From a virus (lineage: Duplodnaviria > Heunggongvirae > Uroviricota > Caudoviricetes), in IMG/VR virus record IMGVR_UViG_2737471869_000016: a DNA stretch of 37,383 bases. The stretch is one strand, 5' to 3'. This document shows positions 1,331 through 29,929 of this stretch, piece by piece (the stretch's first letter is position 1; the number at the start of each line of letters is the position of its first letter). The position numbers and the translations under genes are program-made. Under the pieces are notes generated by a model. That model was given only the letters and a program-made list of their open reading frames with translations. It was not told where the DNA came from and searched no databases.

Positions 1331-1652
1331 GGTGTGGCCTCTTTGCTCGGTGATAGAAATAGCTCACCATCCAGAGTTGAGAATCTCGGGGTGGCGAGAC
1401 GTACAGGGTTCTCAACACCGGAGAGCAAAGAATCCGGCCCGACCGAAGTCGGCCCCGTACGCCCCGCCATAATTCTGACGCGAAAAAGACGTGGCAATAC
1501 AGTACGCACAAAAAAACCGCTGGCGCGGTTATGCGCTTTGCTCTGTATCGGGTTGAGAATCCCGGCACCCGTTTTATGAGGTGCAGCGGAAATGTAACCT
1601 GACCGATTGCGACATGGCAAGCGGTTTTTTTGTGTGTGCATGTTCTGGTTTC

Positions 1653-4474: not shown

Positions 4475-4879
4475 ATGAAAAATGATATTGGTCAGCGGTT
4501 GCGTGAGGAAAGGGAAAGATTGGGACTTAGTCAAGTTGCCATGAGCGACATTGGTGGAGTCAAAAAGCTAACTCAGCTTAGATATGAGAAAGGAGATAGC
4601 TTTCCTGATGCTGCGTATTTGGCAGCGCTGTCTCGTTTTGGCCTTGATGTTCAGTATGTTGTGTTGGGAATTCACTCACCTGAAACTTATAACGATGATG
4701 AGCAGGAGTTGATTACTCGCTTTCGAGCAGCTTCGTTAGATGTGAAAAATGCGGTGATTGGGGCTTTAAAAGGCGCGATCAGTGAAAAGGAAACTCAGCC
4801 ATCAGGACGTGAGTTAAATATTTCTGGTGGTAATAACCGTATCGCTGGTCGTGACTATAACGAAACTAAGGGTAGGTGA
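4475..4879 (+). CDS. XRE/Cro-CI family HTH transcriptional regulator (134 aa)
   Basis: N-terminus IGQRLREERERLGLSQVAMSDIGGVKKLTQLRYEKG is a classic XRE-type HTH; divergently oriented to the minus-strand early-like operon. Confidence 0.8.
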   Translation: MKNDIGQRLREERERLGLSQVAMSDIGGVKKLTQLRYEKGDSFPDAAYLAALSRFGLDVQYVVLGIHSPETYNDDEQELITRFRAASLDVKNAVIGALKGAISEKETQPSGRELNISGGNNRIAGRDYNETKGR

Positions 4880-4894
4880 TAGTAGGGAGGTGAC

Positions 4895-5545
4895 ATGGCC
4901 GTCAACTCAAACGGTTCAAACAATCGCGTTGCAGGGCGTGATTTTCACGAAAAGAATATTCAGATAGAGCGATATGATGGTTCTCATACCGTCAATATCG
5001 CAATCCCTTCGAATAATGATGATGACGATCGCCCTTTGCTTAAGGCTCAGCGTAAGGAGCTAAATAGCTTGGTTGCTGCTATTGCAGAAGCTAGCAATAC
5101 TGAAGCGTTTATTATTTGGCAAAAAGTACATGCGGAGATTGGTGTAGCTGGTATTGATGATATGACAGTAAATCAATATAAAACAGCGGAGAGTTTTCTG
5201 CATGCAATGCTTGAGCGATGTAAAGATCATGATGCCTGTAAGGCTCTTGTAAGTTTATTACTACGTAACAGTGAAGACTGTGGACTTCGACAAAAACTTC
5301 TGCGGTATTGCCATATCAATTTCGGTACAGGACGTTTAAACGATCTTACTCGTTCTCAGTTACAGTCTGCATTGTCGTGGTTAGAGCAACAATCGGCATC
5401 AAGCCACACAGAGAGTTCGACCTTACCAGAAGTCCGACTACGTGCTTCAGAATTAATCCGACTTTATCCAAAAGAAATAATATTCTTTATCTGCGTAGGG
5501 GTTTTGGTAGGCGGTGTCATTTCTAGGGCGTTTTTTAATTTGTAA
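4895..5545 (+). CDS. Hypothetical protein with C-terminal hydrophobic segment (216 aa)
   Basis: ORF-track frame; C-terminus IIFFICVGVLVGGVISRAFF is a probable transmembrane helix. N-terminus repeats the motif NNRVAGRDFHE also found at the C-terminus of the preceding regulator. Confidence 0.55.
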   Translation: MAVNSNGSNNRVAGRDFHEKNIQIERYDGSHTVNIAIPSNNDDDDRPLLKAQRKELNSLVAAIAEASNTEAFIIWQKVHAEIGVAGIDDMTVNQYKTAESFLHAMLERCKDHDACKALVSLLLRNSEDCGLRQKLLRYCHINFGTGRLNDLTRSQLQSALSWLEQQSASSHTESSTLPEVRLRASELIRLYPKEIIFFICVGVLVGGVISRAFFNL

Positions 5546-5574
5546 TCTTACTTGAGCTAAATTGAGGTAATGAT

Positions 5575-5922
5575 ATGAAAGTAAAAAAGGTTCAACTATT
5601 AGTTACTTTTTTATCTATGTTTTCTTTTTCCGCCGTCGCAATGCCTTTTAAAACTATTGAACGTGAGAGTTTCAAGGGGGTATGGCCATTTAATACTGAT
5701 GAGGTTCAATTACAGTGTCTTGATGGTAATCCTTATGTGATGAATTTTGACGATAATAAGTTATATGCACTTACAGGTTTGGCTCGAATAAAAGGTAAAA
5801 CATTTGGTGCGTTACCGTTAGATAACAATAATCCATTTTGGCTAGATAATGATGCCGCCCCAGGGTTAAAAAAGAGTCTGGGGGATGTCACTAAGGCTGC
5901 ATTTGATTTATGTGATAAGTAA
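5575..5922 (+). CDS. Small secreted/periplasmic protein (115 aa)
   Basis: N-terminus MKVKKVQLLVTFLSMFSFSAVAMP looks like a signal peptide; SD-like sequence upstream. Confidence 0.6.
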   Translation: MKVKKVQLLVTFLSMFSFSAVAMPFKTIERESFKGVWPFNTDEVQLQCLDGNPYVMNFDDNKLYALTGLARIKGKTFGALPLDNNNPFWLDNDAAPGLKKSLGDVTKAAFDLCDK

Positions 5923-5927
5923 CTAAA

Positions 5928-6929
5928 ATGTCGGTTCGTAAGATTCCATCAGGTAAATGGCTTTGCGAATGTTATCCCTACGGGGCATCGGGAAAACGCA
6001 TTCGTAAACAGTTTGCGACAAAAAGTGAGGCGCTCTCTTATGAGCGCCGTTTAATGAATAGTAGAGTTGGAGACGAGTTTCAAGATGGTTCTGGTCCTCG
6101 TCTTTCTGAGTTGATTGCTCGTTGGTTTGAGATGTACGGTAAAACCTTGTCCTCTGGTGCAGAGCGCAAAGTCAAACTTGAGGCGATTTGTTCCAGGCTG
6201 GGAGATCCATTTGCTTCTCAGTTTGACAAAAATATGTTTGCTACTTATCGGGAAAGAAGGCTATCAGGAGAATGGAATCCCAAGGGGAAGAAAAAACTTA
6301 GTGAAGCAACCGTTAATCGCGAGCAGTCATATCTACATGCTGTTTTTGCCGAACTGAAGCGCCTTGGGGAGTGGTCTGGTGAAAACCCCCTGACTGGTAT
6401 TCGCAAGTTTCGTGAGGAAGAAAAGGAACTGGCGTTTCTGTATGTAGATGAGATTGAACGCCTTCTGATTGCGTGTGATGAGTCACGGAATAAAGATTTG
6501 GGGGTTGTTGTCCGTATTGGGCTTGCGACGGGTGCTCGGTGGAGTGAAGCAGAAGGATTAAAGCAATCTCAAGTACTGCCCGGTCGAATCACATTTGTTA
6601 AAACTAAAGGAAAGAAGAACCGCACTGTACCGATTTCACCTCAATTGCAGGCTATGCTTCCTAAAAAACGAGGAGCGCTATTTTCACCATGTTATGAGGC
6701 TTTTGACGCTGCAATTAAGAGAGCGAAGATCGAGCTTCCTGATGGGCAATTAACTCATGTGCTACGTCACACGTTTGCCAGTCATTTTATGATGCGGGGC
6801 GGAAATATTCTTGTGTTGCAAAAAATACTGGGGCATAGCGATATAAAAATGACTATGCGTTATGCGCATTTTGCTCCAGGTCATTTAGAGGCTGCTGTTG
6901 AATTGAACCCTTTTGACAATAGAGGGTAA
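5928..6929 (+). CDS. int: Tyrosine site-specific integrase, phage P2-like (333 aa)
   Basis: Catalytic-region motifs TGARWSEA, ITFVKTKGKKNRTVPIS, HVLRHTFASHFMMRGGNILVLQKILGH and MTMRYAHFAP (R..HxxR..Y). Recalled similarity to the phage P2 Int C-terminal region. Gene ends ~100 bp before the tRNA-Leu-derived att-like fragment. Confidence 0.9.
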   Translation: MSVRKIPSGKWLCECYPYGASGKRIRKQFATKSEALSYERRLMNSRVGDEFQDGSGPRLSELIARWFEMYGKTLSSGAERKVKLEAICSRLGDPFASQFDKNMFATYRERRLSGEWNPKGKKKLSEATVNREQSYLHAVFAELKRLGEWSGENPLTGIRKFREEEKELAFLYVDEIERLLIACDESRNKDLGVVVRIGLATGARWSEAEGLKQSQVLPGRITFVKTKGKKNRTVPISPQLQAMLPKKRGALFSPCYEAFDAAIKRAKIELPDGQLTHVLRHTFASHFMMRGGNILVLQKILGHSDIKMTMRYAHFAPGHLEAAVELNPFDNRG

Positions 6930-7035
6930 AAAGTGGCGATAAAAAGTGACAATAGATTCAAATGGCGTTGTATAGAGCCATTTTCAAAGTTAATAAAATC
7001 ATAAGGTTATGATTTATAAATGGTGGTTGATAGTT

Positions 7036-7090
7036 TTTAAAATCCCTCGGCGTTCGCGCTGTGCGGGTTCAAGTCCCGCTCCGGGTACCA
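7036..7090 (+). other. att-like fragment: 3' ~55 nt of tRNA-Leu(UAA) (anticodon loop, variable arm, T-arm, acceptor 3' strand, ACCA); not an intact tRNA gene
   Basis: TTTAAAATCCCTCGGCGTTCGCGCTGTGCGGGTTCAAGTCCCGCTCCGGGTACCA: T-stem GCGGG/CCCGC around the GTTCAAGTC T-loop, ending in ACCA. No complementary 5' acceptor strand (GCCCGGA) or D-arm upstream, so this is a partial copy as left by integration into a tRNA gene. Confidence 0.8.
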
Positions 7091-7132
7091 TGGGAAACAT
7101 CAGAATAATCAAAGCAATAAGCAGTGTCGTGA

Positions 7133-7156
7133 AACCACCTTCGGGTGGTTTTTTTG
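7133..7156 (+). terminator. Rho-independent terminator
   Basis: AAACCACC-TTCG-GGTGGTTT hairpin followed by a T-run, ~40 nt after the tRNA-derived ACCA. Confidence 0.75.
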
Positions 7157-7331
7157 TGCATGCAATTCACGCCCTGTGCATATCCTGTGCTCACGGGGTG
7201 CAATGAGCTGCAATCTACAGCCTGGCAATGCCGAATTGAACGTGTCGCCTCCAGCATAGAGAACCAGGCCGCTTTGCCTGTTTTCCGGTACTCTTCCGGG
7301 AAGGGGGGCCTGCTGAGCAAACTGTAATGTT

Positions 7332-8072
7332 CTAGCCACCCTGAGTACAAAGTTGCTTAATTCGTGCAATCACCTCATCTCTGTACTTCTGGTGTCCGCG
7401 CATAGCCCTTGGATGGGCAATTCTGAAACAGATTGCATTACCTGTTTTGAACTCCCATAGCTTCCCCGGAATGACTGAAGAAGTCTCATAGCCGCCCAGC
7501 TCAGTAAGCACCTGTTTTATGATGTAGTCTGTTCTCCGGGCTCCAGATGCAAAGATGATGAAATCAGGTTCAAGGTGTTTAATTTGTACCGCCAGCAGCT
7601 TCAGCGAGGCTAATATAACTTCCTGCACTTCATTTTGAGGGCGATTGAGAGGGGTCAGTCCGTCGTAATCCCACGCCAGTAGATTGGCATACACGATAGC
7701 CTGAGGAGGGATATTAAGCTCCCGGGCCAGCCTGAAATGATATTGCGTGAAGCGGCTACGTGATTTGAGGTTGGCGGTGCCATAATTTTGTACCGGAAGA
7801 TGTTTCCTGTAACGATCTACAGCTTCTTCAACCACCAGCCCGATGGTAACGTCAGGTATAAGTCCCAACACCCGTGATATCGTATTCTTACCATTCAGCG
7901 TATTCCAGCCTGCGGTTTCACGTCCAACCAGCATGATTTTTACCGGTGAATGCCAGTATTCTTCAAAGGGTACGGGTAAAAATACGCCTGAGTATTTATC
8001 CTCATTCAGGTTAAATGACTGGGCGTCAACTTCCTGTAATATCCGTTTGTACGCGTCTAATAGCCTTTCCAT
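7332..8072 (-). CDS. Uracil-DNA glycosylase superfamily-like protein (246 aa), putative
   Basis: Segments IMLVGRETAGWN and FRIAHPRAMRGH loosely resemble UDG motif A (GE-x-PG) and motif B (HPS-x-x); I recall a UDG-like gene as part of the pipolin gene set. Assignment is by weak motif resemblance only. Confidence 0.45.
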   Translation of the reverse strand: MERLLDAYKRILQEVDAQSFNLNEDKYSGVFLPVPFEEYWHSPVKIMLVGRETAGWNTLNGKNTISRVLGLIPDVTIGLVVEEAVDRYRKHLPVQNYGTANLKSRSRFTQYHFRLARELNIPPQAIVYANLLAWDYDGLTPLNRPQNEVQEVILASLKLLAVQIKHLEPDFIIFASGARRTDYIIKQVLTELGGYETSSVIPGKLWEFKTGNAICFRIAHPRAMRGHQKYRDEVIARIKQLCTQGG

Positions 8073-8122
8073 TCTTCAATCCTGCCCCGTAATAAAAACA
8101 CCTTCACATATATATTATCTCC

Positions 8123-9355
8123 ATGATATCAATCAGATACATGAGGATAAATATGCAAAAATCCTTCCGATTCACCAATTCGTCCATCAAAGCCCTTCCG
8201 GCAAACACAGATACCAGATCTACAGAGCTTGAGGTATCTGATACCGAAGTTATTGGCCTCAAATGTCTCTCAGGTCGAACGGGTAACAAACGTTTCCTCC
8301 TGCGCTACACATTCCACGGTACCAAAAAAAGTATCAGTATTGGCAGATTCCCTGAAATTGATGTGGGGACAGCTCGCCAGATAGCTCGCCGTCATAAGGA
8401 GGCGATTGCACTTGGAAATGACCCCAAGGCAGAGCGCGATAATTATCGTGCGATGCCAACGCTTAGTGAGTTTTTTCACCAGACCTATGTTCCGTTCATC
8501 AAGCGCCATAAAAAGTCCTGGGATAAGGATGTTCAGCGTTTCACGCAATACATTGAACCTCGTCTGGGGAAGATACGTTACTGCGACCTTCGGGCCCGGG
8601 AAATCCAGCAGGTGCTTTTCGACATGCTTGAGGGTCGTATTCACGGCCAGCAGTATGCACCGTCTACCTGTAACAGGGCACTGGCTATTCTGAAAACTAT
8701 GGGGCGTTATGCGCTACGACAGGATGTCTTAGAGAAGAATGAAGCCGATAAGATCCCTTTGCTGAAGGAGAATAATCAGCGGACGCGCTTTTTTGACGCC
8801 GATGAGATCAGAAGGATCCTCGACGCTGCGGCACGATACCCCAATAAGGCCGCCGGGGGACTGATAGCCATGCTGCTGTTAACCGGTACACGCAAATCAG
8901 AAATGCTGAATGTCATGCACAAACATATTGATCGGGATAACAGGTCGTTATTCATTCCTTATACTAAGAATGGTCGCAGCAGAACTGTGTATCTCAGTGA
9001 TGTTGCATTATCCATTATTGATTCGATCCCACGGGCTGGCAGCAACCCCTATCTGTTTGCCGTAAAAGATAATGGAAAACCAATATCAGAACCCCGGTGG
9101 GCCTATGAAAAAATACTGGCAGAGTGCGGGATAGATAAAAGTGAAGTCTGTTTCCACACTACGCGCCATTCCGTCGCATCATTACTTGTCTCCAGCGGAC
9201 AGTACAGTCTGTATGACGTTAAAGCCCAGCTTGCGCATGCCAGTATTCAGAGTACGGAGCGCTACGCAAAACTGACACCAGAGCGAATGCGTCAGACCGG
9301 GCAGGGTGTTACCGACCTTCTTTTACCCCCCGTAGCTACCAGTAAAGAACAGTGA
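8123..9355 (+). CDS. int: Tyrosine site-specific integrase, P4-type with N-terminal arm-binding domain (~400 aa; likely start at the Met of MQKSFRFT, 8153)
   Basis: N-terminus FRFTNSSIKALPA (arm-type DNA-binding domain pattern), catalytic motifs LLLTGTRKSEM, HTTRHSVASLL, AHASIQSTERY. Confidence 0.9.
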   Translation: MISIRYMRINMQKSFRFTNSSIKALPANTDTRSTELEVSDTEVIGLKCLSGRTGNKRFLLRYTFHGTKKSISIGRFPEIDVGTARQIARRHKEAIALGNDPKAERDNYRAMPTLSEFFHQTYVPFIKRHKKSWDKDVQRFTQYIEPRLGKIRYCDLRAREIQQVLFDMLEGRIHGQQYAPSTCNRALAILKTMGRYALRQDVLEKNEADKIPLLKENNQRTRFFDADEIRRILDAAARYPNKAAGGLIAMLLLTGTRKSEMLNVMHKHIDRDNRSLFIPYTKNGRSRTVYLSDVALSIIDSIPRAGSNPYLFAVKDNGKPISEPRWAYEKILAECGIDKSEVCFHTTRHSVASLLVSSGQYSLYDVKAQLAHASIQSTERYAKLTPERMRQTGQGVTDLLLPPVATSKEQ

Positions 9356-9380
9356 TTTTTGCATCTCTTAAACGTGGAGA

Positions 9381-9638
9381 ATGATTATGCCGTTAAAGTG
9401 CCCTAAGTGCGGTAGTCGGAATACAGTCACAGAAACTGCCGGAAAGATAGCAGAAGTGACTCGCGATGACCGGTTCCTGACATCGACATCCGGTTATATT
9501 AGCCCGGAGCAATTACCAGAATTGCTTAAAGAAATCATCAGGGCGATACAACGTCTCTTTAGATTCCTTGAACAGCGTGAAAGGAATAATGCGCCAGTGC
9601 TGATCTGCAAGGATTGTGGATATTATGAAAGAATATAG
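9381..9638 (+). CDS. Zinc-ribbon protein (85 aa), function unknown
   Basis: Two CxxC pairs (CPKCG near N-terminus, CKDCG near C-terminus); SD-like GGAGA upstream. Confidence 0.55.
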   Translation: MIMPLKCPKCGSRNTVTETAGKIAEVTRDDRFLTSTSGYISPEQLPELLKEIIRAIQRLFRFLEQRERNNAPVLICKDCGYYERI

Positions 9639-9684
9639 ATGACCACTGAAGGCAATTCCAGATTCTTTAGCCTGTCTATGTAAC

Positions 9685-9713
9685 CCCGATACTTAAAACG
9701 TATCGGGTTTTTT
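9685..9713 (+). terminator. Rho-independent terminator
   Basis: CCCGATAC-(7 nt loop)-GTATCGGG perfect 8-bp stem followed by TTTTTT. Confidence 0.7.
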
Positions 9714-9731
9714 GTTTATGAGGATTATTCA

Positions 9732-10103
9732 ATGAAATTTGTCTCGAACTGGCAAGACCTGCCGTCGCTCCTTCTTCCGGAGTCAGTAATGAGTCTGTTG
9801 AAAACAGAGCTGGTACTCCCATTTGAAGATGAATACTCTGCAATGAGTTTCTGGGATGAAGTTGGGGTGACATTAATATATGTCGAGCCCGATGATGTGC
9901 CTGAAGATATTAAAGCGCAGGTATTAAATGTGATTCATCAGTTAATTGCAAATCCAGAATTTGTAGTCCGTCTGACAGATGACTATTACCTGATGCTTTC
10001 TGTTACGGAAGATAACGGGAACGGTATTTATCTGTTATTTCACCCCGATTGCCCTCTGAAGGGTATTGATTTATTAATTTCTATGGCCGAATCACGCTAT
10101 TAA
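9732..10103 (+). CDS. Hypothetical acidic protein (123 aa)
   Basis: ORF-track frame; GAGGA SD upstream; first gene of a three-gene plus-strand cluster. Confidence 0.6.
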   Translation: MKFVSNWQDLPSLLLPESVMSLLKTELVLPFEDEYSAMSFWDEVGVTLIYVEPDDVPEDIKAQVLNVIHQLIANPEFVVRLTDDYYLMLSVTEDNGNGIYLLFHPDCPLKGIDLLISMAESRY

Positions 10104-10128
10104 ACACAAGCAAAACCAGGAACGCAAA

Positions 10129-10662
10129 ATGAGTAAATCAAAATTAGTTAAAAATAATGTTGAGTCAGTTTCGAAGGAGATTAAAAATGAGGCAGAGGTT
10201 ATTCATGAAAATCTCAGTGCAGATGAACAAACATTATCTGATATAAAAGACTATCAGTTGCTCATTGAAACAGGCCAGGCAGAAAAAATCAGTCCTAAGG
10301 CAAGTGGTATGCTGACATGGCAACTGGCGATATCAGAGGTGGACAATGAACTTTATCTTCGTCTGGTGGCAAATGGCTGTGGAGGGTTGTTCTCTAAGGA
10401 CTGGATCTCACTTTCAAAGATTGCAACCGTTCTGGAAACACAACCTGCTACCGGCTTCTCATCCGGAGTATTCAGGCCGTTATTCAAAGGGGCAAGCGCC
10501 AACAATGCAGGTTTTCTGGCTGCTGTTTTACGCTCCCCGGATATATGTCTGCTGGAGGCACATCCAGAGAAGTTATTTACTCATGTATTATACCCGGACT
10601 GGAGGGAGCGGTTGAATAAACTTAATACGATCAGTAGCCAGGAAAAGATTACAGAGGATTAA
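10129..10662 (+). CDS. Hypothetical protein (177 aa)
   Basis: ORF-track frame; 25-nt gap after previous gene. Confidence 0.6.
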   Translation: MSKSKLVKNNVESVSKEIKNEAEVIHENLSADEQTLSDIKDYQLLIETGQAEKISPKASGMLTWQLAISEVDNELYLRLVANGCGGLFSKDWISLSKIATVLETQPATGFSSGVFRPLFKGASANNAGFLAAVLRSPDICLLEAHPEKLFTHVLYPDWRERLNKLNTISSQEKITED

Positions 10663-10734
10663 TTTATTTCCTGCACTGTTATACAACCAGAAATCACCAC
10701 ACACCGCTATTTACTTTCTAAAGGAAAATTTATT

Positions 10735-11169
10735 ATGCAAACCCAATATGCCTTAAAACAGGCAGGATTAACTCTGCCTGTTACTAAAGAATTTCAGCAG
10801 CATATTACTACTCTTCTGGCAAATCAGGTTTTACAAAAAATAACTGAGGCAGTGGTTATTAATTTCCGTGATCCGGACTACAGTGCAGAATCCGGGGGCT
10901 TTCATCCCGTTGAAATACGGTTTATCCGTAAGAATAATGAATGGTATTTTGATTATGTCACAGATTTTAGTTATATGGGGCGTGTCTACCCTGAGCTGGA
11001 AAAAGAAATTGATTTTTGCTGGTCGGGGAATTATGTCTTCCATTATCTGATTGGGGATATTTTACTGGCAGCAGAGAGGAATGAACTCTGGTCCCTGTGG
11101 GAGCGTAATTTTATGGAGTATCTCTCTATGGGGATTTACCGGGTAACGGTAACTGTGGAAAGTTGTTGA
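10735..11169 (+). CDS. Hypothetical protein (144 aa)
   Basis: ORF-track frame; followed by terminator hairpin at 11283..11313. Confidence 0.6.
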   Translation: MQTQYALKQAGLTLPVTKEFQQHITTLLANQVLQKITEAVVINFRDPDYSAESGGFHPVEIRFIRKNNEWYFDYVTDFSYMGRVYPELEKEIDFCWSGNYVFHYLIGDILLAAERNELWSLWERNFMEYLSMGIYRVTVTVESC

Positions 11170-11282
11170 CCCGTTATGAACAGGAAGAAAGCGGGCGGCT
11201 TTGTAATCTACTGCATGTGGCGTGCATCACAGCATGGAGATGATGTCTCTTTTTCCTGGCTGTTCGCATAAACAAGTGCAGA

Positions 11283-11313
11283 CACGGGGGATCTCAGATC
11301 CCTCGTGATTTTT
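11283..11313 (+). terminator. Rho-independent terminator
   Basis: CACGGGGGATC-TCA-GATCCCTCGTG hairpin (one G-T wobble) followed by ATTTTT. Confidence 0.6.
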
Positions 11314-11360
11314 GCCCCCTATGGTGCATTCTCCAGTAGCAGGGTGATAACGGTTAATCC

Positions 11361-11396
11361 ATTACCCCAACGACAGTATTACACCGGTAATAAATG
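11361..11396 (+). repeat. Copy A of a diverged direct repeat (25-bp core ATTACCCCAACGACAGTATTACACC)
   Basis: Matches 22147..22171 with 2 mismatches in 25 bp; flanking similarity extends to ~45 bp; contains internal inverted hexamers ATTACC/GGTAAT. Confidence 0.6.
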
Positions 11397-11470
11397 TTCA
11401 TGAATACAGTCAGTTATGTGGGTTTTGAGGTGGACTATGTCATCGTTGACGATAACTGAAGGTTTTACAG

Positions 11471-11698
11471 ATGTATAAAACTCGCGGTGAAAGGATCGCA
11501 GAAAGGCTGTGCTGGATATTACTTCAACTGTATACCGGTAATACGGTATCGGTTAATGATATATGTCAGCGTTTCGCGGTCAGTCGCCGAACCGGACAGC
11601 GTGATTTGTTGAGAGTTGAAACTGTAACGGAAACTATTTCACCTGGAAGGGTAAGGCTGGCAAATTTGATAAGGGAACGAGTTAGACGAAATTTTTAA
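11471..11698 (+). CDS. Small HTH protein (75 aa) resembling the N-terminal HTH of WYL-type regulators
   Basis: ICQRFAVSRRTGQRDLLRV parallels the N-terminal HTH of the 300-aa WYL protein ([20 protein letters not shown]). Confidence 0.5.
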   Translation: MYKTRGERIAERLCWILLQLYTGNTVSVNDICQRFAVSRRTGQRDLLRVETVTETISPGRVRLANLIRERVRRNF

Positions 11699-11733
11699 TC
11701 GAATCCATATCAATACTATAAAATATGAAAATT

Positions 11734-11759
11734 AACGGGAGTAAATATATACTCCCGTT
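11734..11759. terminator. Bidirectional terminator-like hairpin between convergent genes
   Basis: AACGGGAGTA-(6 nt)-TACTCCCGTT perfect 10-bp stem; T-rich tracts on both sides. Confidence 0.5.
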
Positions 11760-11779
11760 ATAATGCAACCTTTTTTTAA

Positions 11780-12598
11780 CTACTCAAATGATATTAATTT
11801 AGGTGCGACAGTGTTTTTATGATGTGTTGAATTTGCAAGATTAATAATATCATGAAATGATTTCATGTCGTCGTCAGTGATTTCTAGGGCTGGATCAGCT
11901 AAATCGGCACAGGTAACATTTAACCAGTGTGTTAATGAATCAATCCTGTTTGAAGTAATATATTCAGTGTGACCAACATTCCACTTCCAGTTGATTATCC
12001 GAGCTGGTCTGAATCTCACCTCCCGAACCCCAATTGGTGTTACTGACTCAACGAGAGGGTATATCGTGTTAAGTACTTTATCATGTTCACTGTAGATATT
12101 TAAATGCCCCATTTTTGAACCGTAAGCCATTTTCATTATGTTCTCTGTATAACTTGTTATTGGGGTGGCTCCGGCCATAGAGATTGTTAAGAGAATATTA
12201 TCATTTTTAATATAGGGTAATGTATTGTTTATTAATCGAGTCCCTAAAGAATGACCCATTATGATCACATTACGCTTTTCTTTAACGTATATCTCGTTTA
12301 TTACGCGTGCTAATTTTTCTCTGTTATTAACTGCTGCTTTCGTTGCATTATACCAGGCCTGACGCGCTTTAAATGGGATGGAGATTGATGACAATAAAGG
12401 AGATGTTCTCAGGGGGAAGAGAGTATATAGCCCCCACTCGTTCGCTATGTCAGAACTTAATATGGATAGTAGATTTGCCGATTCCCATTTATAGTATCTG
12501 ACATCAAGGCCACACCCTGCTTTAATTCGGTTAAACCATGATATATCATTTTCGGTCAGAAACCCTGATACAACAAGAAGAACCGGGCATTTTTTCAT
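11780..12598 (-). CDS. Alpha/beta-hydrolase fold protein (272 aa), putative serine esterase/lipase
   Basis: Nucleophile-elbow motif GHSLG (VIIMGHSLGTRL); candidate acid/base residues downstream (EHDKV); AT-rich gene immediately downstream of the WYL regulator on the same strand. Confidence 0.65.
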   Translation of the reverse strand: MKKCPVLLVVSGFLTENDISWFNRIKAGCGLDVRYYKWESANLLSILSSDIANEWGLYTLFPLRTSPLLSSISIPFKARQAWYNATKAAVNNREKLARVINEIYVKEKRNVIIMGHSLGTRLINNTLPYIKNDNILLTISMAGATPITSYTENIMKMAYGSKMGHLNIYSEHDKVLNTIYPLVESVTPIGVREVRFRPARIINWKWNVGHTEYITSNRIDSLTHWLNVTCADLADPALEITDDDMKSFHDIINLANSTHHKNTVAPKLISFE

Positions 12599-12659
12599 GG
12601 TAACTCCATTTTTTAGCTTACAAAAATAGCACTCAATGAAAATTATATTATCCGTGTCA

Positions 12660-13562
12660 TTACGGGGCGTTACTTGGCTGGGTGTAACGTTTCAGTGCGG
12701 ATTGTATATCTTCAGCAAGTTGTTGACGGATTGAGGCCGGTTGTATTACTTCGACATCCGGTATCCAGTATTTCATTAAAGGCATTATCTGATCTGTGTG
12801 TGTTACACGTGATATCACCAGTAAATCGCCAGACCGGGAAGTATGAATTATTTCCTGTCCTGGCAATAGATGACGGTGGGTAAACCACGGAGCAACATGT
12901 GCGGAAACTGAAATAAGAACTTCGATAAGGTCTTCGCTATACCAGATACCATCTGTCTTTTCTATTTTTTCATTAATTTCGGGGATTATCCTGAAAGAGA
13001 TATTACTCATGCAAACGTCTTTGACAGATGAGATAACAAAGCTTTTTAATGTACTGTCATGGGCGGCAGCGAGATACCACAATCCGTTGTCATTAACCAG
13101 TCTGTATGGCTCAACAGCCCGAAACTCTTTATCTTTGTAATTAAAATTTACTTTCTTCTGTGACAGGATGGCATCGGATAATACATTCAGAATTGACATG
13201 AATGATCCGCAGTTTTCGTATGGACGTTGTTTTATCAGAAACGGGTTGTTTTTCGTGTTACCTAACAAAATACTCAGTAGTCTGTCATCCCAGCGAGGGA
13301 ACAGCCCTTCAATACCCAGGATGCGCGTGAAATGACGTAAATCAGCATTGCTGCGTTGACCGAGAACACCGTCAGACAGGCGATAGCGACCATTTTGTCG
13401 AATCAGATTAAGATAGGACAGGCGCTGAGTAAGATCACGACGGATAGTTTTTTCGCAAACGTTAAATTCCTCAGATAACTCCCGGAAGGCTAGTGACTCA
13501 CCATTGTTCAGGCGAGTTAATATCAATCCGAGTCGATATCCAAGTTTATCGTGCTTACCCAT
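12660..13562 (-). CDS. WYL-domain transcriptional regulator (HTH + WYL), BrxR/CapW-like (300 aa)
   Basis: N-terminal HTH ([20 protein letters not shown]) and central WYL signature ([20 protein letters not shown]). Subfamily assignment is by analogy. Confidence 0.8.
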
Positions 13563-13611
13563 TCGTTTATCCGGTTAATGCCAGCGAAGAGGATATTTTC
13601 AGCAAAGTAAC

Positions 13612-13722
13612 GGACAGGATGAGTCCACTTTTACTGTGACGGAGAAAAAAATTAACTCATTAATTATCAATATATTAAAACATTGCTGGAATCATCGAAT
13701 AACATATGGACTCATCCTGTCC
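13612..13722. promoter_or_regulatory. Perfect 16-bp inverted repeat pair (GGACAGGATGAGTCCA / TGGACTCATCCTGTCC) spaced by 79 bp, 50-160 bp upstream of the WYL regulator start
   Basis: Arms at 13612..13627 and 13707..13722 are exact reverse complements, around an AT-rich spacer in the divergent promoter region between the WYL gene and the 108-aa gene. Confidence 0.55.
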
Positions 13723-13941
13723 ATGTGTATTTTTACGTTCAGGGTGATAATTATCATCCTGACCTGTACATGACCTGTTTTTGCTGCATATTTGACCATG
13801 CACTTTTGCCATCAAGTCGGAGAGGCAGGGGGGAACGTAAGATACGAAGGTTAGAGAGGTTATCAGCAATTACAATGATGATTAATATTTTCATAATATC
13901 GGAGAACATCATATTAGTTGAAATAACATAAAGGTGGTTCT

Positions 13942-14268
13942 ATGTATTTACATATCAGAAAGTATCAACTCGTAAATGCGAGATGGCGTGATGTCATTGA
14001 TCTGACAGATTATGAAGAAACAATAAGGCAGATTGTCGGTACATTATTTGGAAATGATTTTATTGAGGTCAGCGTTGAAACAAATTTTTTTACTCTGACA
14101 GTAAACAGTACAAGCAGTAAAATACCACACGGCATACTGGTGAATATGGGGAAAAGGCTGGCGGCTAATCTCCAGAGTATCACCTGTCATGCCATGCGGA
14201 TCTATCATGTTAATGGCCATCCTGACGCGCGGCAGTTATTTCACTGTTTTGATGTCGATTGCCTGTGA
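13942..14268 (+). CDS. Hypothetical protein (108 aa)
   Basis: ORF-track frame; divergent from WYL regulator, convergent with the polymerase gene. Confidence 0.5.
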   Translation: MYLHIRKYQLVNARWRDVIDLTDYEETIRQIVGTLFGNDFIEVSVETNFFTLTVNSTSSKIPHGILVNMGKRLAANLQSITCHAMRIYHVNGHPDARQLFHCFDVDCL

Positions 14269-14283
14269 TTAAGCCCCCAACTT

Positions 14284-14312
14284 CTGTTAAAGGAGTTGGG
14301 GGAGATTTAACG
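14284..14312. terminator. Hairpin between convergent genes (possible bidirectional terminator)
   Basis: CCCCCAACT-(11 nt)-AGTTGGGGG perfect 9-bp stem just downstream of both the 108-aa gene and the polymerase gene; no strong T-run. Confidence 0.45.
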
Positions 14313-14316
14313 GTTA

Positions 14317-16980
14317 TCAGGCTGGAAGACAGAATGTCGGATATTTACGGGCTATGATATCCATCAGTGACTTCATTCGCGGTGTTACAGAACTAAATTT
14401 CATTTGGGGTATTTTTGCTCTTACCGCATTTTTTACATCAGTCACCGTTACTGAATAGCCTTCTGACGTCAGCCATTCAGCAACCTCTTTACAGGAATAA
14501 CTTTTTTTATCTTTCAGCATCAGCCCCCATTGGCACTGAGTCAGCGCCCGGAGAAATAGTCTGACTAAAATATCATCACTACGTTTGCTTCCGACTTTTA
14601 GTTTCATATCAGAAAACACCGTCCGGCAATAGAGAAAATCACACCAGTCATCCCAGTCAGCCAGGGTCTTCAGTGTATGCGTTTGCCGCCAGTCGTCGAA
14701 AAGAGAGCGTTGCTGCAGAGCCTCTTCCATATTATCCCATGGGCGGGAAAACATCAGTAAATGCCCTTCATTCATGGCGGGCTGTACGGGCTGGCGTTTG
14801 AAATCGAATTCCAGATTAAGACGGATATCCTGTTCCCGGGATACCAGATCGCTTTCCGACAGCCACATCTCACGCGTTGATATCAACGTACTTCGGGATA
14901 ACGTCTGACCGGGTAAACGATTAAGGTAAAGATCTACCATATAGTCGTTATAGTCACTGCGTGGAATATCGGCAGGAGGTTTGACGCCAGCCCTGGCATG
15001 AACAACAGGTTTTCCCTGAATAGCTCTATAGGTTAACTGCCCCCGGGTTTTCATGGCGATAAGCTGGCTGACTTCATGCTTACATGTCAACATTGATGAA
15101 CCCGGATCAACAATATCGCACAGCGACTGGAAGCGGGAAGACAGTGGACCGCTCATGTTTATCTTGTTAAGTGGGCAATTTGTCAAAAAGCCATCGGTTG
15201 TGACGCTGACAACCGATGAATCAGAAGGCAAAGCATTCATGAGTTCCCCGGCAACGGCGCGGATAAATCCCGTTACATGCGCAGCAAAGAATGGCTGAGT
15301 AACCGATGATGGCGGGAGGGATCTGTTTAATCCACGGGCAGTATCAAAGGCGGTTTTGGCGCGAAGGCCCTGAGCAAGTTTGCCATAAAGCGAGTTGCCA
15401 ATTTCTTTCCAGAATTTCTCCTCCAGAGAACCTTTAATATGGCGATTACGGTTCTCACGGACCTGTTGAACAAAGGGAAGAAACACCGATGTTGATTCGC
15501 TGTTATGTGGGGAGATGTCACAGATCCAGGGGACGATGATCCCATTATGGATCGTCATCTCTGCCCCGAGCGACAGAGCAAGTTCGATTTCAGGTGCCGT
15601 TGCCCATGATTCGCCACTTAATGGAAAGAATAACCCATATTGATCGGTCCGAACCGGCAGGCTGGGATAGGGAACTGATTCCGGGAACCGAAATGTGACA
15701 AGCGCAAATCCCATTACATGCCCACAGTAATCGTCCGGATTTTTACTGAGGCGGATGTTCCCGTAATCGGGTGTGAGGATATCTAATAGCCCGGTGGTAT
15801 ACGCTCCAGCCAGATCGTAGTCATACCAGTGATCAGACGGTGTAACCCCCATCATAAAACACTCATTGCGTCCGCCGTGGTAACAGTTGATCGGGAACGT
15901 TTCAAACAACTCTCTTGAAGGAACACTGGCGGGGTTTTTAATCGTCCGGAATGCCTGTTTTTCCGTGAGCCAGAGTTCACGGGTTTTAATGTGTGTCCCA
16001 AGGCAGACTTCAGGAGACATATTGTTTTCTTTAAGTGTTTTGGTGAACCGTGAAACTGCCATCGCCCCGATGGTGGCGGGGACACGATCAATCATCAGCT
16101 CCCGGGCGCAAAAATTGCGAACCTGTAAAGCATAACGAACCGCAATCTCGGCATCCCGCAGAGCATAGGCTTCAAACCCTGCTCTGTCGCCCAGAAGATA
16201 TTCACGCATATTGGTTATGGAATAAGGTGCAGGAATGGTGAGTTTGGGAAGACCCAGTAATTCACCACATTCAGCCAGACCCATACCCCCGGGAGTGATA
16301 AGCAGTGTATCGATGAAAGCTACGTTACTGCAACGCGGAGGGGAAGTTCGTTTGTCAAACATTATCTGTTCAGTCTTTACGCGACGTTCCTGCTGTTCAT
16401 CAAAATCGATACCGTAACGATTTTTGAAGCTGCTGACAGTACCGCGTATTCCTTTCAGAAGAATTTTGTAGTCTGACCAGAAATTGGCAAAGGAGGCGAT
16501 ATCCGCACGAATGAAATGCGCATATATATTAATAATACCGGGCCATTTTGTAATCACACCCGTTTCAAGAAGCGGTGTAATCGTTTGACAGAGAAATTCC
16601 TTAAAAGACAGCCGGGATTTTTTCTGTGAGTCAGGTGGATAGATAATGTTCGATATACCTGTATTATCGGGTAAGACAACATAACTCTGATATGACAGAA
16701 TATCATTCTGTCGTGTTTCAGGGTTGAAAACATATTCGGTATCAAAACCGATATGGAGCGTCAGGTCGTTTGAAATCACAGACACGTTTTTTGATGCAGG
16801 TGGCATCACAGGATAATCATCAAGCGTTTTAGGTCTTTTACGATTGAGCACTGGCTCTGAAGTCACGGACTGATACCCCGAGGCGGCAGCGAGGATATCC
16901 TGCAAATTATGGCTCATAGTTAACTCCGAAAAAATGCCGGGAGCTGTGTCCCGGCATAAAGAATCAAGATTTAATAACAT
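14317..16980 (-). CDS. Family-B DNA polymerase of the primer-independent type (piPolB), pipolin hallmark (887 aa in ORF track; likely start at internal Met 16917, RBS GGAG)
   Basis: PolB motifs read in the translation: Exo I IGFDTEYV (DxE), Exo III YALRDAEI (Yx3D), motif B KEIGNSLYGKLAQG (Kx3NSxYG), motif C-like VTTDGF, and AMKTRGQ, i.e. the KTRG motif that I recall replacing KxY in piPolBs. Neighbours are integrase and AlpA/Xis-like genes. Confidence 0.85.
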   Translation of the reverse strand: MLLNLDSLCRDTAPGIFSELTMSHNLQDILAAASGYQSVTSEPVLNRKRPKTLDDYPVMPPASKNVSVISNDLTLHIGFDTEYVFNPETRQNDILSYQSYVVLPDNTGISNIIYPPDSQKKSRLSFKEFLCQTITPLLETGVITKWPGIINIYAHFIRADIASFANFWSDYKILLKGIRGTVSSFKNRYGIDFDEQQERRVKTEQIMFDKRTSPPRCSNVAFIDTLLITPGGMGLAECGELLGLPKLTIPAPYSITNMREYLLGDRAGFEAYALRDAEIAVRYALQVRNFCARELMIDRVPATIGAMAVSRFTKTLKENNMSPEVCLGTHIKTRELWLTEKQAFRTIKNPASVPSRELFETFPINCYHGGRNECFMMGVTPSDHWYDYDLAGAYTTGLLDILTPDYGNIRLSKNPDDYCGHVMGFALVTFRFPESVPYPSLPVRTDQYGLFFPLSGESWATAPEIELALSLGAEMTIHNGIIVPWICDISPHNSESTSVFLPFVQQVRENRNRHIKGSLEEKFWKEIGNSLYGKLAQGLRAKTAFDTARGLNRSLPPSSVTQPFFAAHVTGFIRAVAGELMNALPSDSSVVSVTTDGFLTNCPLNKINMSGPLSSRFQSLCDIVDPGSSMLTCKHEVSQLIAMKTRGQLTYRAIQGKPVVHARAGVKPPADIPRSDYNDYMVDLYLNRLPGQTLSRSTLISTREMWLSESDLVSREQDIRLNLEFDFKRQPVQPAMNEGHLLMFSRPWDNMEEALQQRSLFDDWRQTHTLKTLADWDDWCDFLYCRTVFSDMKLKVGSKRSDDILVRLFLRALTQCQWGLMLKDKKSYSCKEVAEWLTSEGYSVTVTDVKNAVRAKIPQMKFSSVTPRMKSLMDIIARKYPTFCLPA

Positions 16981-17602
16981 TTACTACAGATTTGAAAATA
17001 TCGGTTTTGCGTGATTCATCATCTGCATGGATAAATGAAACGAGGTTCCTGCCTGCTTTAATCAGGATGCCACGTTGCGTCTTTTCCACAGATGGGGTGA
17101 CGCGTGCAGATAACAGACAATTTTCATGTAACTGAAGAAACTTTTTTGAGGCGTAGCCGCCATGCAGTCGGGCTTTAATTTCATTATACATATCATCAAG
17201 AGAACCGGGTTCTCCTGATTCACTCAATACCGGATAGCCCTTCTTATCAAAAAGGCTGAGGATAGATTTACCATCATGTTCGAACAAGGTAACACCGTAA
17301 ATGTATTTCATTCGAAAGGTGAGGGCGTCGGTGGTGTAGATCTCCTCCTGACAACTGAAATTTTTGAGACGCCTGGCTAATTCATTAAAAACAGCACGAG
17401 CAGTAGCCGTGTCCTGCAGGGTGTAGGTATAAAGTACGAAGCCATCTGTGCCGATGAGCTTTACTAAGTTGTCCATAATCGTGATAGCGAGAACTAATGC
17501 AAAGGACAGATATTTTTCATCGTTGTCTACAGCTGTGCTTGCTGATTCGGGAATAATGTTCAGTGCATTATTAGCGTTATTTTCCGTGTTCTTAGTAACC
17601 AT
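16964..17602 (-). CDS. Hypothetical protein (212 aa) between the AlpA/Xis-like gene and piPolB
   Basis: ORF-track frame; overlaps the AlpA-like gene by 11 nt; no motif recognised. Confidence 0.6.
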   Translation of the reverse strand: MVTKNTENNANNALNIIPESASTAVDNDEKYLSFALVLAITIMDNLVKLIGTDGFVLYTYTLQDTATARAVFNELARRLKNFSCQEEIYTTDALTFRMKYIYGVTLFEHDGKSILSLFDKKGYPVLSESGEPGSLDDMYNEIKARLHGGYASKKFLQLHENCLLSARVTPSVEKTQRGILIKAGRNLVSFIHADDESRKTDIFKSVVNVIKS

Positions 17603-17792
17603 TTATATCACCTTTAAGTTTGTTTTGACGATGTGCATTTTCCCACTCAACAATATCGTCAAGAGAGAATCGTATAGCCCGCCCAATTCTGATGAAGGGC
17701 GGGAGTTTTCCGGGGTTGCGCGATATATCTGACGCAACCGTGGATGCAGAAAGATTAAATCTTTCTGCGAACTGCTTAATGGTTAAATACAT
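17592..17792 (-). CDS. AlpA-family HTH protein / putative excisionase (66 aa)
   Basis: YLTIKQFAERFNLSASTV ... IRIGRAIRFSLDDIVEWE matches the AlpA/Xis pattern; immediately downstream of the integrase. Confidence 0.75.
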   Translation of the reverse strand: MYLTIKQFAERFNLSASTVASDISRNPGKLPPFIRIGRAIRFSLDDIVEWENAHRQNKLKGDINGY

Positions 17793-17934
17793 AAACCTCC
17801 GGTTTCAGAGAATAAGAAGCCACGCGGATTTAATATCAATCCACATTCTGTGATGACTTAATGCAGGGCCCTGCAGAAGCATGCAATGACAATACCGTCC
17901 TTAAACGAGTGTTGCATCAATCACGAATCACAGA

Positions 17935-19071
17935 TCATAGGTTCATTTTTGTGTCATAACTTTCTATGACCTGAGAAACCACTGCGTGTGATGTCGCTGC
18001 ATTGTGAAAAGCGTAGCGACGGGTCGCCGTGAGTGAATGGTGATTTAGCAGATGGGAAGCGATTGCAATATCCCCGGTCGCCTGTAGTACCCGGGTGGCA
18101 AAGGTACGGCGCAGGTCATGCATCCGCAGGTTATCAATGTTGGCATCCCGACAAATACGGGCAAAGGTTGCACGCGGATATGCCAGAGGGCGGGCATTGT
18201 CGGTTAGTTGTGGAAAAATGTAAGTTTTGCTGAGCATCAGGTCTTGCTGGCACTGGACAACTGCAATGGCTGGAGGTGCAAGTGGGCAGGTGAAAGGGTG
18301 TCCGGACTTTGTATCAGGCAGTATGAGTTGATGCATATCCGGGTGCCAGTACTCCCATTTCAGGGTACATACCTCACCAATACGCATCCCCGTATAAAGA
18401 GCAAGCAATATAGAATCAGCTGCCGGTGTTTGCAGCGCTGTTGCCGCGTCAATAAAGCGCGGGATTTCTGTCGCTGATAGTGTGCGATAGCGAATGTTAT
18501 TTTCTTTCAGATAGCGGACATGTGACATCGGGGAATGTGTGATCCATCCAGCACGTACTGCCAGAGAGCATATTTTGGACAATATTGCGAGGATACGGTT
18601 TACTGTTGACGGACGTAATTTTTCCCGTAAGCCAGCAGCATATTGTTCTAGTTCTCCTGCCGTGATGTCGCGAAGTTGCCGCTTGCCCCAGAACGGGCGA
18701 ACGTAGAGGTTGAGTTTTGACAACTCTGACTGAGGACTCTTTTTATACAACTGCAAATCCGGTAGCCACAGGTCATTGATGGCCTGTTCCACAGTGAATC
18801 GACGGGACTGAACCGCAAGACGATTTTTATCAGCAAGCAGTTTCATCACATGCTGACGGGCATCCTCAACGCAGAGCTGAGGGAACTGACCCAGGGTTTC
18901 ATATATACGCTGATTGTTTATAGTGGTACGAAAGGCCAGCGTGATCCGATTGGGATACACCAGAGCACGCAGGTTTTGGCAGTGAATATCACGGTATTCC
19001 TGACAACCCGTGAGGGGATGTGGAAGTTGGTGAATTGATTTGTTGCTGAAACGCAGATCCAGAATAGGCAT
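17935..19071 (-). CDS. int: Tyrosine site-specific integrase (378 aa)
   Basis: Catalytic motifs LALYTGMRIGEV, HDLRRTFATRVL, LLNHHSLTATRRY (R..HxxR..Y). Confidence 0.9.
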   Translation of the reverse strand: MPILDLRFSNKSIHQLPHPLTGCQEYRDIHCQNLRALVYPNRITLAFRTTINNQRIYETLGQFPQLCVEDARQHVMKLLADKNRLAVQSRRFTVEQAINDLWLPDLQLYKKSPQSELSKLNLYVRPFWGKRQLRDITAGELEQYAAGLREKLRPSTVNRILAILSKICSLAVRAGWITHSPMSHVRYLKENNIRYRTLSATEIPRFIDAATALQTPAADSILLALYTGMRIGEVCTLKWEYWHPDMHQLILPDTKSGHPFTCPLAPPAIAVVQCQQDLMLSKTYIFPQLTDNARPLAYPRATFARICRDANIDNLRMHDLRRTFATRVLQATGDIAIASHLLNHHSLTATRRYAFHNAATSHAVVSQVIESYDTKMNL

Positions 19072-19213
19072 CGTATTTCTCCTGTAAATGACACTGGAAA
19101 AATACGATGTGAGGTTATAGTCTGCCAGTTACAGCTTTCACAGTTCATCAGGTGAAAAATGCTGATTCGGATATAATGGCAACACAATTCCATGTCGCCA
19201 TTATATTAAGAAA

Positions 19214-20344: not shown

Positions 20345-20850
20345 AATTTTATCCTCGTTTGAATTATTACACTGATTTAAAAAGTAGCATGTCGTGTTAG
20401 CGAGGTAATCCTAAAACGTGAATGGCAGCAGGGGCAAGCTTGAATCTGCGTAAGGATATGGCTTAAATTTAATGGTGTAATCAGTGAGTTAGAGGCTTAT
20501 AGCCATTTAAATACAATAAGTTATGATGATATGTGGCGGGTGTAAATCGGTTAGTTTTTATGGTTAAAATATGAGCGTTGTGAGATTTGAGATATGATGG
20601 TTTTTAAATTACATACAAGTTACCCCTGATGATCAGTATTAATACCAGAATGATACATGCGAGCAGCACCCAATCCTGTACTATTGATGATGGCTATACA
20701 AGGCTGAAACTTTGAGTTGTATGTTGCCAGGAGGATTAATGTCCACAAGGCCCAGATAGAATGATTTCTCAGATATTAAAGTTGAAACTTATTAACTATG
20801 TGAGAGGCTGATATTTATTCAGTCTCTCATTTGTTTTTATCGTTTTAAAG

Positions 20851-22086: not shown

Positions 22087-22146
22087 CGTTGCCGATTATG
22101 GATGATGTCAGCTTCACACACCAGAATGGGTGATATATGGATCATC

Positions 22147-22184
22147 ATTACCCCAACGGCAGTTTTACACCATGGCTAATATGG
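22147..22184 (+). repeat. Copy B of the diverged direct repeat (core ATTACCCCAACGGCAGTTTTACACC)
   Basis: Matches copy A (11361..11385) with 2 mismatches in 25 bp; lies ~60 bp upstream of the 411-aa gene start and ~220 bp upstream of hsdM. Confidence 0.6.
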
Positions 22185-22389
22185 ATGCTATCTTACTAAG
22201 ATAATTGGTTTTTAGCGAGTGACGAGCCAGGTTGTGTCAGTCTGTCTCATGTCGATATTACGGGGATGATGCAAACCTGAATGCTGCGATATTGGCGTGT
22301 CAGGGGAGGCATCTTACGGTATCATTTACCGCAATTTTTAAGATGCAAAGCCCTGCATCGCTAGCTTTTTCTTCAGACCAGGATGATTC

Positions 22390-25815: not shown

Positions 25816-25864
25816 TGAATCTTCATGTGACCAGTAGCGAGTAGCGCCAGAAAGAAAAGGATTA

Positions 25865-29904: not shown

Positions 29905-29929
29905 CTTATCAATATGAGTTCTTAAGAGT

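Follow-up and report, generated by a model that had tools for sequence, protein, structure and literature searches.

We found that an orphan 3′ part of tRNA-Leu(UAA), situated in a 37,383-nt stretch of DNA (the window, meaning the whole stretch analysed), very probably represents the central copy in a set of three direct att repeats produced by two independent site-specific integrations into the E. coli gene leuZ. On its left, the fragment is bordered by a P2-like prophage, which presents its early/int end. The rest of the window, beginning at approximately position 7166, belongs to a pipolin defence island and not to a generic P4-type island. Pipolins are known mobile elements that encode the DNA polymerase piPolB. 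The repeat between them is the attR of the prophage and, at once, the tRNA-proximal att of the pipolin. Nothing that we found contradicts this reading as a tandem integration. Tandems of prophage and pipolin with three att repeats are already known and published; one apparently undescribed detail is that a replacement copy of 3′ETS-leuZ is present in every leuZ-targeting element that we saw.

The orphan tRNA-Leu fragment and the extent of the att repeat

The region between the two elements contains the following features:

7036..7090, + strand: 3′ part of the leuZ tRNA-Leu(UAA), consisting of the anticodon loop, the 3′ strand of the anticodon stem, the variable arm, the T arm, the 3′ acceptor strand and CCA; exact match
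7036..7042, + strand: anticodon loop TTTAAAA, the left limit of identity and the putative 7-bp overlap (crossover) region
7091..7157, + strand: copy of 3′ETS-leuZ (b4759 in K-12), from the K-12 annotation and alignments
7036..7165, + strand: full att direct repeat, 122 bp long (to 7157) against the phage copy and approximately 130 bp long (to 7165) against the native yecA-side copy

The initial annotation had described a 55-nt copy of the 3′ half of tRNA-Leu(UAA) that lacks the 5′ acceptor strand and lies between a P2-like integrase ending at 6929 and a UDG-like/P4-type-integrase module, and our analysis agreed with this description throughout. In the alignment, identity to K-12 leuZ was complete (55/55) over 7036..7090, between the base that opens the anticodon loop and the CCA end. 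The 51-mer ending in CCA (7040..7090) matched the leuZ 3′ sequence with 0 mismatches and occurred once in the window, with an expectation of 0 in shuffled sequences. Because ARAGORN called no intact tRNA across the whole window, the 5′ acceptor strand and the D arm are absent from it. The Pfam matches and UniRef names agreed with the two neighbouring modules: the phage int gene stops 106 bp to the left of the repeat, and the pipolin integrase gene begins approximately 1 kb to the right. No extra copy of the repeat was present inside the window, even when its last 23 nt were searched for with 3 mismatches allowed, and at gathering thresholds no Rfam family matched the tRNA fragment or the external transcribed spacer (ETS) that follows it.

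It had also been suggested that the duplicated region is longer than 55 bp and that it reaches upstream, where the residues ATGGTGG were read as a degenerate D-arm. The greater length held, the repeat running downstream to 7157 or approximately 7165, so that its unit comprises the tRNA 3′ part, 3′ETS-leuZ and the terminator. An upstream extension was rejected, as neither leuZ, K-12 nor the pipolin-only genomes remain identical to the window to the left of 7036. The word ATGGTGG is present but not colinear with the D arm of the tRNA: its distance to the anticodon loop is 9 nt, against 19 nt in the tRNA. Sister arms do not keep it either and read ATTGTGG, GTGGTGG, GGCGCGG or AGCGGCT, and its likeness to a D-arm reads as chance. 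Everything to the left of 7036 is phage P-arm DNA.

The intact tRNA gene and the outer att copies had been predicted to lie outside the window, and an empty site had been expected in island-free strains. K-12 provides this empty site: leuZ, with which the glyW-cysT-leuZ tRNA operon closes, is followed by the annotated sRNA 3′ETS-leuZ and yecA, neither element is present, and homology to the window is limited to 7036..7165. The outer copies were found in the comparator genomes 08-00022 and ET826. Strain 08-00022 contains the pipolin only and is 100% identical to the window over 7036..37383. Its 38-kb island lies between an intact leuZ, whose attached repeat copy has the variant allele of the window (G>C, A>C and a 2-nt deletion), and yecA, which is adjoined by a K-12-like 130-bp direct repeat. 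The K-12 copy and the yecA-side copy of 08-00022 each match 7036..7165 at 96.2% identity (blastn).

ET826 shares the layout of the window and has three direct copies of the repeat. At the first (attL), the intact leuZ leads into an ETS that does not differ from the native form, and the phage P′ arm comes next; this copy matches 7036..7157 at 96.8% identity (blastn). The middle copy is bordered to the left by the phage P arm and continues to the right with the pipolin-type ETS and pipolin DNA. The third, of native form, adjoins yecA at the distal island end. The ET826 prophage spans 35.6 kb and reads, after pgsA-glyW-cysT, intact leuZ, ogr, tail, capsid, terminase, replication, switch region, int and fragment. 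The intact leuZ is therefore located at the ogr end of this prophage, 35.6 kb upstream of the fragment. With three copies in ET826, the island alone in 08-00022 and the empty site in K-12, the earlier proposal of two stacked elements with an internal att repeat was borne out. The window is E. coli chromosome, and 5425 of 5426 complete E. coli genomes match part of 6930..7340; the int gene/P arm of the window's phage is present in 523 of the 5426, the pipolin left end in 531 (approximately 10%), and both are joined as in the window in 30.

A survey of att arms covered more than 10 unrelated arm types, including those in 76 IMG/VR loci. The arm types, namely P2-like, pipolin, that of the lambdoid phage mEp390 and at least 7 others, diverge from the tRNA at 7036 or 1 nt before it. 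The tyrosine-integrase crossover would thus fall within the 7-bp anticodon loop, a placement based on this boundary of identity together with the anticodon-loop class of tRNA integration sites that Williams is said to have defined in 2002. Given 122-130 bp of identity, RecA-dependent recombination could also shift the junctions.

The prophage and pipolin sides of the repeat

On the prophage side, the window contains:

4475..6929, + strand: gene run ending in int, with a C-like HTH protein (4475..4879), a membrane protein (4895..5545), a DUF2511 protein (5575..5922) and int (5928..6929)
5928..6929, + strand: P2-like (Peduoviridae) prophage integrase; Pfam Int_N and Phage_integrase
6931..6969, + strand: three direct repeats, AAGTGGCGAT, AAGTGACAAT and AAATGGCGTT, in the phage P arm
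6996..7015, no strand assigned: perfect palindrome AAATCATAA-GG-TTATGATTT in the phage P arm, 20 bp to the left of the crossover region

The genes of the run at 4475..6929 are co-oriented and tightly spaced, and they occur in the same order in ET826. The integrase is 96% identical to that of Escherichia phage 520873 (Peduoviridae, Xuanwuvirus) and 39-56% identical to other Peduoviridae integrases. As in P2-like prophages, a P2-family integrase adjoins att, accompanied by a divergent C/Cox-type switch region. The P2-type structural and replication genes (capsid gpN, gpO, terminase, tail sheath and tube, gpA and ogr) are present in the homologous prophages of ET826 and phage 520873; of its own prophage, the window contains the last approximately 7 kb (the early region). 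Phage 520873 is the closest phage record; it is a prophage cut-out that ends in int-att-yecA and represents the phage-only configuration.

A P-arm motif, defined post hoc, matched six times when both strands of the full window were scanned, and three of these matches are clustered within the 39 bp at 6931..6969. Related A(A/G)TGGCG words are located in the P′ arms past the repeat at attL at many loci. The AAGTGGCGAT-like repeats are putative arm-type Int binding sites. The palindrome noted earlier at 6996..7015 is present and perfect. Perfect inverted repeats with 9-bp arms gave 6 matches (4 distinct loci) in the window compared with 1.25 ± 1.5 in Markov-1 simulations, so that by statistics the palindrome appears only mildly unusual in 37 kb, and its significance rests on conservation: the core TCATAA-NN-TTATGA is found at a constant distance from the att core in the divergent P2-like arms of loci L033, L053 and L023, which have differing flanks. 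By our reading, both of its strands fit the textbook IHF consensus WATCAANNNNTTR with one mismatch each. The palindrome is probably (with moderate confidence) an accessory site of attP for a bending protein of the IHF type. A function as an intrinsic terminator was considered and rejected, as the palindrome has an AT-only stem, is not followed by a run of T and went uncalled in the terminator scan.

On the pipolin side, the window contains:

7332..8072, − strand: UDG-like pipolin gene, paired with the tRNA-proximal integrase; identified from the UniRef name of cluster members and the literature
8153..9355, + strand: pipolin tyrosine integrase of P4-type architecture; Pfam Arm-DNA-bind_3 and Phage_integrase
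10735..11169, + strand: DUF2787 protein, a conserved pipolin gene; Pfam DUF2787, E = 1e-39
14317..16917, − strand: piPolB, primer-independent family B DNA polymerase of 866 aa; pipolin hallmark gene
17592..17792, − strand: AlpA-type excisionase/HTH protein, from the RefSeq annotation of identical DNA in 08-00022
17935..19071, − strand: second tyrosine integrase of the pipolin core; Pfam Phage_integrase and Phage_int_M

The product of 14317..16917 had no Pfam or PDB sequence match; we identified it as piPolB because the published motifs are all present. It contains DTE at 59-61, D368, SVTTDG at 571-576 and KH-X8-KTRG (KHEVSQLIAMKTRG) at 613-626, and the piPolB of E. coli 3-373-03_S1_C2 is described with the same residues and motifs at the same positions (PMC5695915). 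The features given there as diagnostic of piPolB are D-x-E in ExoI, a Thr for the first Asp of PolC (SxTTDG) and KH-X8-KTRG in place of KxY (PMC5695915).

The remaining pipolin core set in the window consists of the tyrosine recombinases, DUF2787 (from Pfam), the AlpA-type HTH protein (from RefSeq) and the UDG-like protein (from its name). For the tRNA-proximal integrase, the open reading frame of which could begin at 8123 or 8153, we adopted 8153, the RefSeq start in 08-00022; its cluster of 2097 members is named site-specific integrase. Searches of Pfam, NCBIfam and PDB sequences gave no match for the product of 7332..8072, and members of its 90% cluster bear the UniRef name "Uracil-DNA glycosylase-like domain-containing protein". 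We term it UDG-like from this database name and from the literature, in which UDG is among the conserved pipolin genes (PMC11551731, PMC7385651) and DUF2787 is listed as a pipolin gene alongside integrases and UDG. The cargo of the window, comprising a type I R-M system, DUF262/PD-(D/E)XK nucleases and MZA, is the same combination as in 08-00022.

The 3′ETS-leuZ copy within the repeat

In K-12, 3′ETS-leuZ is described as an RNase E-released sponge that has RyhB and RybB as pairing partners and ARN repeats through which it binds Hfq (10.1101/2021.04.25.441314, where Lalaouna et al. 2015 is cited as the source for the sponge). Judged by its sequence, the ETS at 7091..7157 is a copy of this sponge: it is 94-96% identical to K-12 3′ETS-leuZ, and the pairing block, the terminator and the U tail are intact. 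The RyhB/RybB pairing block AATCAAAGCAATAAGCAGTGTCGTG is unaltered, and the terminator hairpin AAACCACC-TTCG-GGTGGTTT with its T run lies at approximately 7133..7155. The ETS of the window folds at −13.2 kcal/mol with a 9-bp hairpin (ViennaRNA), and its duplexes with K-12 RyhB and RybB are predicted to be unchanged. It represents the pipolin-type allele. Three sites set this allele apart from the phage and native forms, namely two substitutions (G>C and A>C) and a deletion of 2 nt, all of them within the ARN-rich, Hfq-binding 5′ part.

The copy in the window trails a truncated tRNA, and approximately 35 kb of prophage part it from the glyW-cysT-leuZ operon and the glyW promoter. Because it is cut off from the operon, its expression would need another promoter. 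Since the repeat includes 3′ETS-leuZ, lysogens would express the allele supplied by the element and carry one or two orphan copies in addition.

A 3′ETS-leuZ copy was present in the attP of every leuZ-targeting element found, including that of mEp390, which was sequenced from virions. In Enterobacteria phage mEp390, an annotated 121-bp attP ("putative prophage insertion site") adjoins int and spans the same segment of leuZ from the loop to CCA, the ETS and the terminator. This phage is lambdoid, however, and its integrase and arms are unrelated; its segment is 87% identical, its terminator loop differs and its T stem shows a compensatory change. Across 26 distinct ETS variants, AATCAA and AAGCAGTGT were invariant, the 5′ ARN-rich part was free to vary, and the terminator stem showed a compensatory change from A-T to G-C. 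Within the searchable literature we found no paper linking 3′ETS-leuZ to att sites, and the accessible text of the pipolin papers does not mention 3′ETS-leuZ within the att repeat.

A tentative and rather speculative extension, which we would sooner doubt than accept, is that the att sites of all leuZ-targeting elements (P2-like phages, lambdoid mEp390, pipolins and several other arm types) are built around a functional module, and that each attP brings its own sponge allele, in which the RyhB/RybB pairing block is invariant and compensatory changes preserve the terminator. If this were true, the host sponge allele would be swapped for that of the element, and orphan copies would be placed behind element promoters (here that of the C-to-int operon). 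Expression of such orphans might alter how RyhB (iron) and RybB (envelope stress) are buffered in approximately 20% of E. coli strains.

Order of integration, alternative readings and known systems

In the mechanism that we propose, the attP of each element would bear a replacement gene copy, from the anticodon loop to CCA, plus 3′ETS-leuZ and the terminator. A tyrosine integrase would cross over in the 7-bp anticodon loop, and integration would thereby rebuild an intact tRNA from the host 5′ half and the element 3′ half, with the prior 3′ half being displaced downstream as an orphan. The pipolin would have entered between leuZ and yecA, and the P2-like phage would subsequently have entered the reconstituted leuZ. 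This order, pipolin first and phage second, is most likely and the most economical history. Since any sequence 3′ of the crossover would stay linked to what lies on its right, the pattern of alleles indicates that the copy in the window is pipolin-borne.

The window copy would serve as attR in prophage excision, presumably with Int, Cox and IHF, and also, for the pipolin, as a hybrid tRNA-proximal att in which phage DNA would have taken the place of the left core half-site. The middle site is indeed hybrid in structure, with the phage P arm on the left, the pipolin arm on the right and the 5′ anticodon-stem half-site absent. Because this half-site is lacking, excision of the pipolin might be impaired, whereas excision of the phage, through attL and the middle site, might not. 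Insertion of a prophage has been proposed to inactivate or immobilise the pipolin (PMC7385651, PMC11551731), and the hybrid middle site provides a concrete test of this published idea.

The final map would be the same if the P2-like phage had lysogenised first and the pipolin had later entered the orphan tRNA 3′ half in the phage attR, and each element also occurs alone at a similar frequency. We nevertheless regard this reverse order as improbable: the orphan site is without the 5′ anticodon-stem strand that forms the left core half-site of attB and would be expected to attract integration poorly, and the published description of pipolins as clonal or immobile beside a prophage fits a later arrival of the phage. 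Moreover, one locus (L055) has a mEp390-like arm joined to a pipolin-type copy, for which repeated arrivals of phages at a resident pipolin are the simplest explanation. It is far less credible still that the prophage is the sole integrated element and that the DNA to the right is fixed, lineage-specific chromosome. The fragment does appear to act as an ordinary prophage attR, as this reading requires, but the right-hand region is absent in K-12 and present in only approximately 10% of complete genomes, is bounded by its own 130-bp direct repeat at yecA, opens with an integrase gene, carries piPolB and belongs to a mobile-element family for which horizontal transfer is reported in the pipolin literature. 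Equally hard to sustain is an origin of the fragment as a decayed tRNA pseudogene through local duplication or homologous recombination instead of site-specific integration. Repeats of 122-130 bp suffice for RecA-dependent exchange; however, the boundary falls at the anticodon loop, or 1 nt before it, in all of the more than 10 unrelated arm types, the 55 nt show no decay (100% identity), an integrase gene lies on either side of the fragment, and an attP derived from virions has the same segment.

A further possibility, compatible with the tandem integration, is that the orphan copy is more than a scar and is transcribed by read-through and processed, adding RyhB/RybB sponge capacity in lysogens. 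The intact pairing block and terminator and the unchanged predicted duplexes are in its favour, as are the position of the copy downstream of the co-oriented, tight + strand run from C to int (4475..6929) and the lack of any predicted + strand terminator-like site between the int stop and the ETS hairpin. That scan is insensitive, however, and overlooked the ETS hairpin itself. In addition, the native sponge is released through RNase E processing of a tRNA precursor, and here the tRNA is truncated; int-distal transcript levels are low in P2-type lysogens, which also counts against such a role. On balance, we consider an active orphan sponge unlikely.

As a tandem integration, the window has close published counterparts. 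According to the literature, all E. coli pipolins are found at the Leu-tRNA between pgsA and yecA and are flanked by conserved att repeats (PMC7385651, PMC11551731). Flament-Simon et al. 2020 report "three att-repeats" where a myovirus prophage adjoins an E. coli pipolin and name H10407, 2014EL-1346-6, 99-3165 and FWSEC0002 as three-repeat strains (PMC7385651); these four strains rank H4, H24, H23 and H21, respectively, among the best genome matches of the window. The published combination of pipolin and myovirus prophage (ETEC H10407 and others; Redrejo-Rodriguez 2017, Flament-Simon 2020, Mateo-Caceres 2024) resembles the window in the site, the att repeat, the UDG-integrase end and the piPolB motifs. 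The named tandem strains have the same P2-like prophage type joined to the pipolin, and they match positions 1 to 24.5 kb of the window at 96-97%. Nothing essential distinguishes the window from these published tandems, its cargo being one particular combination.

The tRNA-Leu locus between pgsA and yecA is a documented hotspot of integration and defence. The exact boundaries at 7036, 7157 and 7165 permit a clean delimitation of both elements and the design of excision assays.

A further parallel is the attP of Haemophilus phage HP1, a member of the P2 family, on which Hauser and Scocca reportedly worked in 1990-92. The resemblance lies in a P2-family integrase that uses the anticodon loop of a tRNA-Leu as the overlap region and in a block of identity that passes the 3′ end of the tRNA, so that the downstream tRNA operon is rebuilt. 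HP1 differs in its host and in the tRNA operon concerned; at the leuZ site, a regulatory spacer RNA and a terminator are rebuilt instead of more tRNA genes. As a minor observation, the scar of a tandem integration was recognisable from sequence alone.

The leuZ-derived sRNA sponge in attP sites

The att repeat contains a complete copy of 3′ETS-leuZ, the sRNA sponge for RyhB and RybB (window 7091..7157), and such a copy was present in the attP of every leuZ-targeting element seen (loci L002, L004, L006 and L007-L082). The RyhB/RybB pairing block was unchanged in all 26 3′ETS-leuZ variants compared, and the terminator stem showed a compensatory change among them. The attP site of the lambdoid phage mEp390 (L006) departs from leuZ as follows:

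L006 2499..2619, attP of phage mEp390

Here the terminator loop is GAAA in place of TTCG. In the T-stem of the tRNA 3′ half that the phage carries, two paired changes relative to leuZ (C>T with G>A) compensate for each other. Because of this pair change, mEp390 lysogens would be expected from the sequence to make a variant tRNA-Leu(UAA).

Prophage-pipolin joints at leuZ

In the compared locus L055 (IMGVR_UViG_2703718828_000001, around 6646..6800), the phage arm is of another, mEp390-like kind and adjoins a pipolin-type att copy, and both this copy and the adjoining pipolin left end are of the same type as in the window. The P2-like arm was also found joined to variant pipolin left ends; L020, L064, L068, L047 and L082 were grouped with L055 as prophage-pipolin joints of these kinds. 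The mEp390-like arm on a pipolin, together with the P2-like arm on variant pipolin ends, indicates that prophage-pipolin tandems at leuZ have arisen repeatedly.

Gene content of the P2-like prophage and the pipolin

Within the P2-like prophage, adjacent matches to two regulatory RNAs, both above the Rfam gathering score, fall in the early region, and two cargo ORFs are inserted between the C-like repressor and int genes:

1387..1474, minus strand, C4 antisense RNA (78.5 bits)
1510..1584, minus strand, Hfq-binding sRNA isrK (62.8 bits)
4895..5922, plus strand, membrane protein and DUF2511 protein ORFs

The two ORFs are likely lysogenic-conversion genes of the immunity operon.

The pipolin carries two tyrosine integrases, one att-proximal (8153..9355) and the other beside piPolB, either of which may act on the leuZ att; the latter and the cargo genes are listed here:

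17592..19071, minus strand, second tyrosine integrase and AlpA-type HTH gene, adjoining piPolB
25132..25815, plus strand, YecA-family paralogue (UPF0149 and SEC-C motif)
29963..34270, DUF262, PD-(D/E)XK and restriction endonuclease genes
34708..37383, plus strand, start of an MZA anti-phage system

The YecA-family paralogue is placed between hsdS and hsdR within the type I restriction-modification operon; chromosomal yecA is itself the neighbour of the pipolin insertion, and no similarity between K-12 yecA and the paralogue was detected at the DNA level. In the MZA system, mzaA (sigma-70 family) is followed by an ATP-binding gene interrupted by the window end, beyond which strain 08-00022, which carries the pipolin only, has IS421, then mzaC-E and then the distal att repeat.
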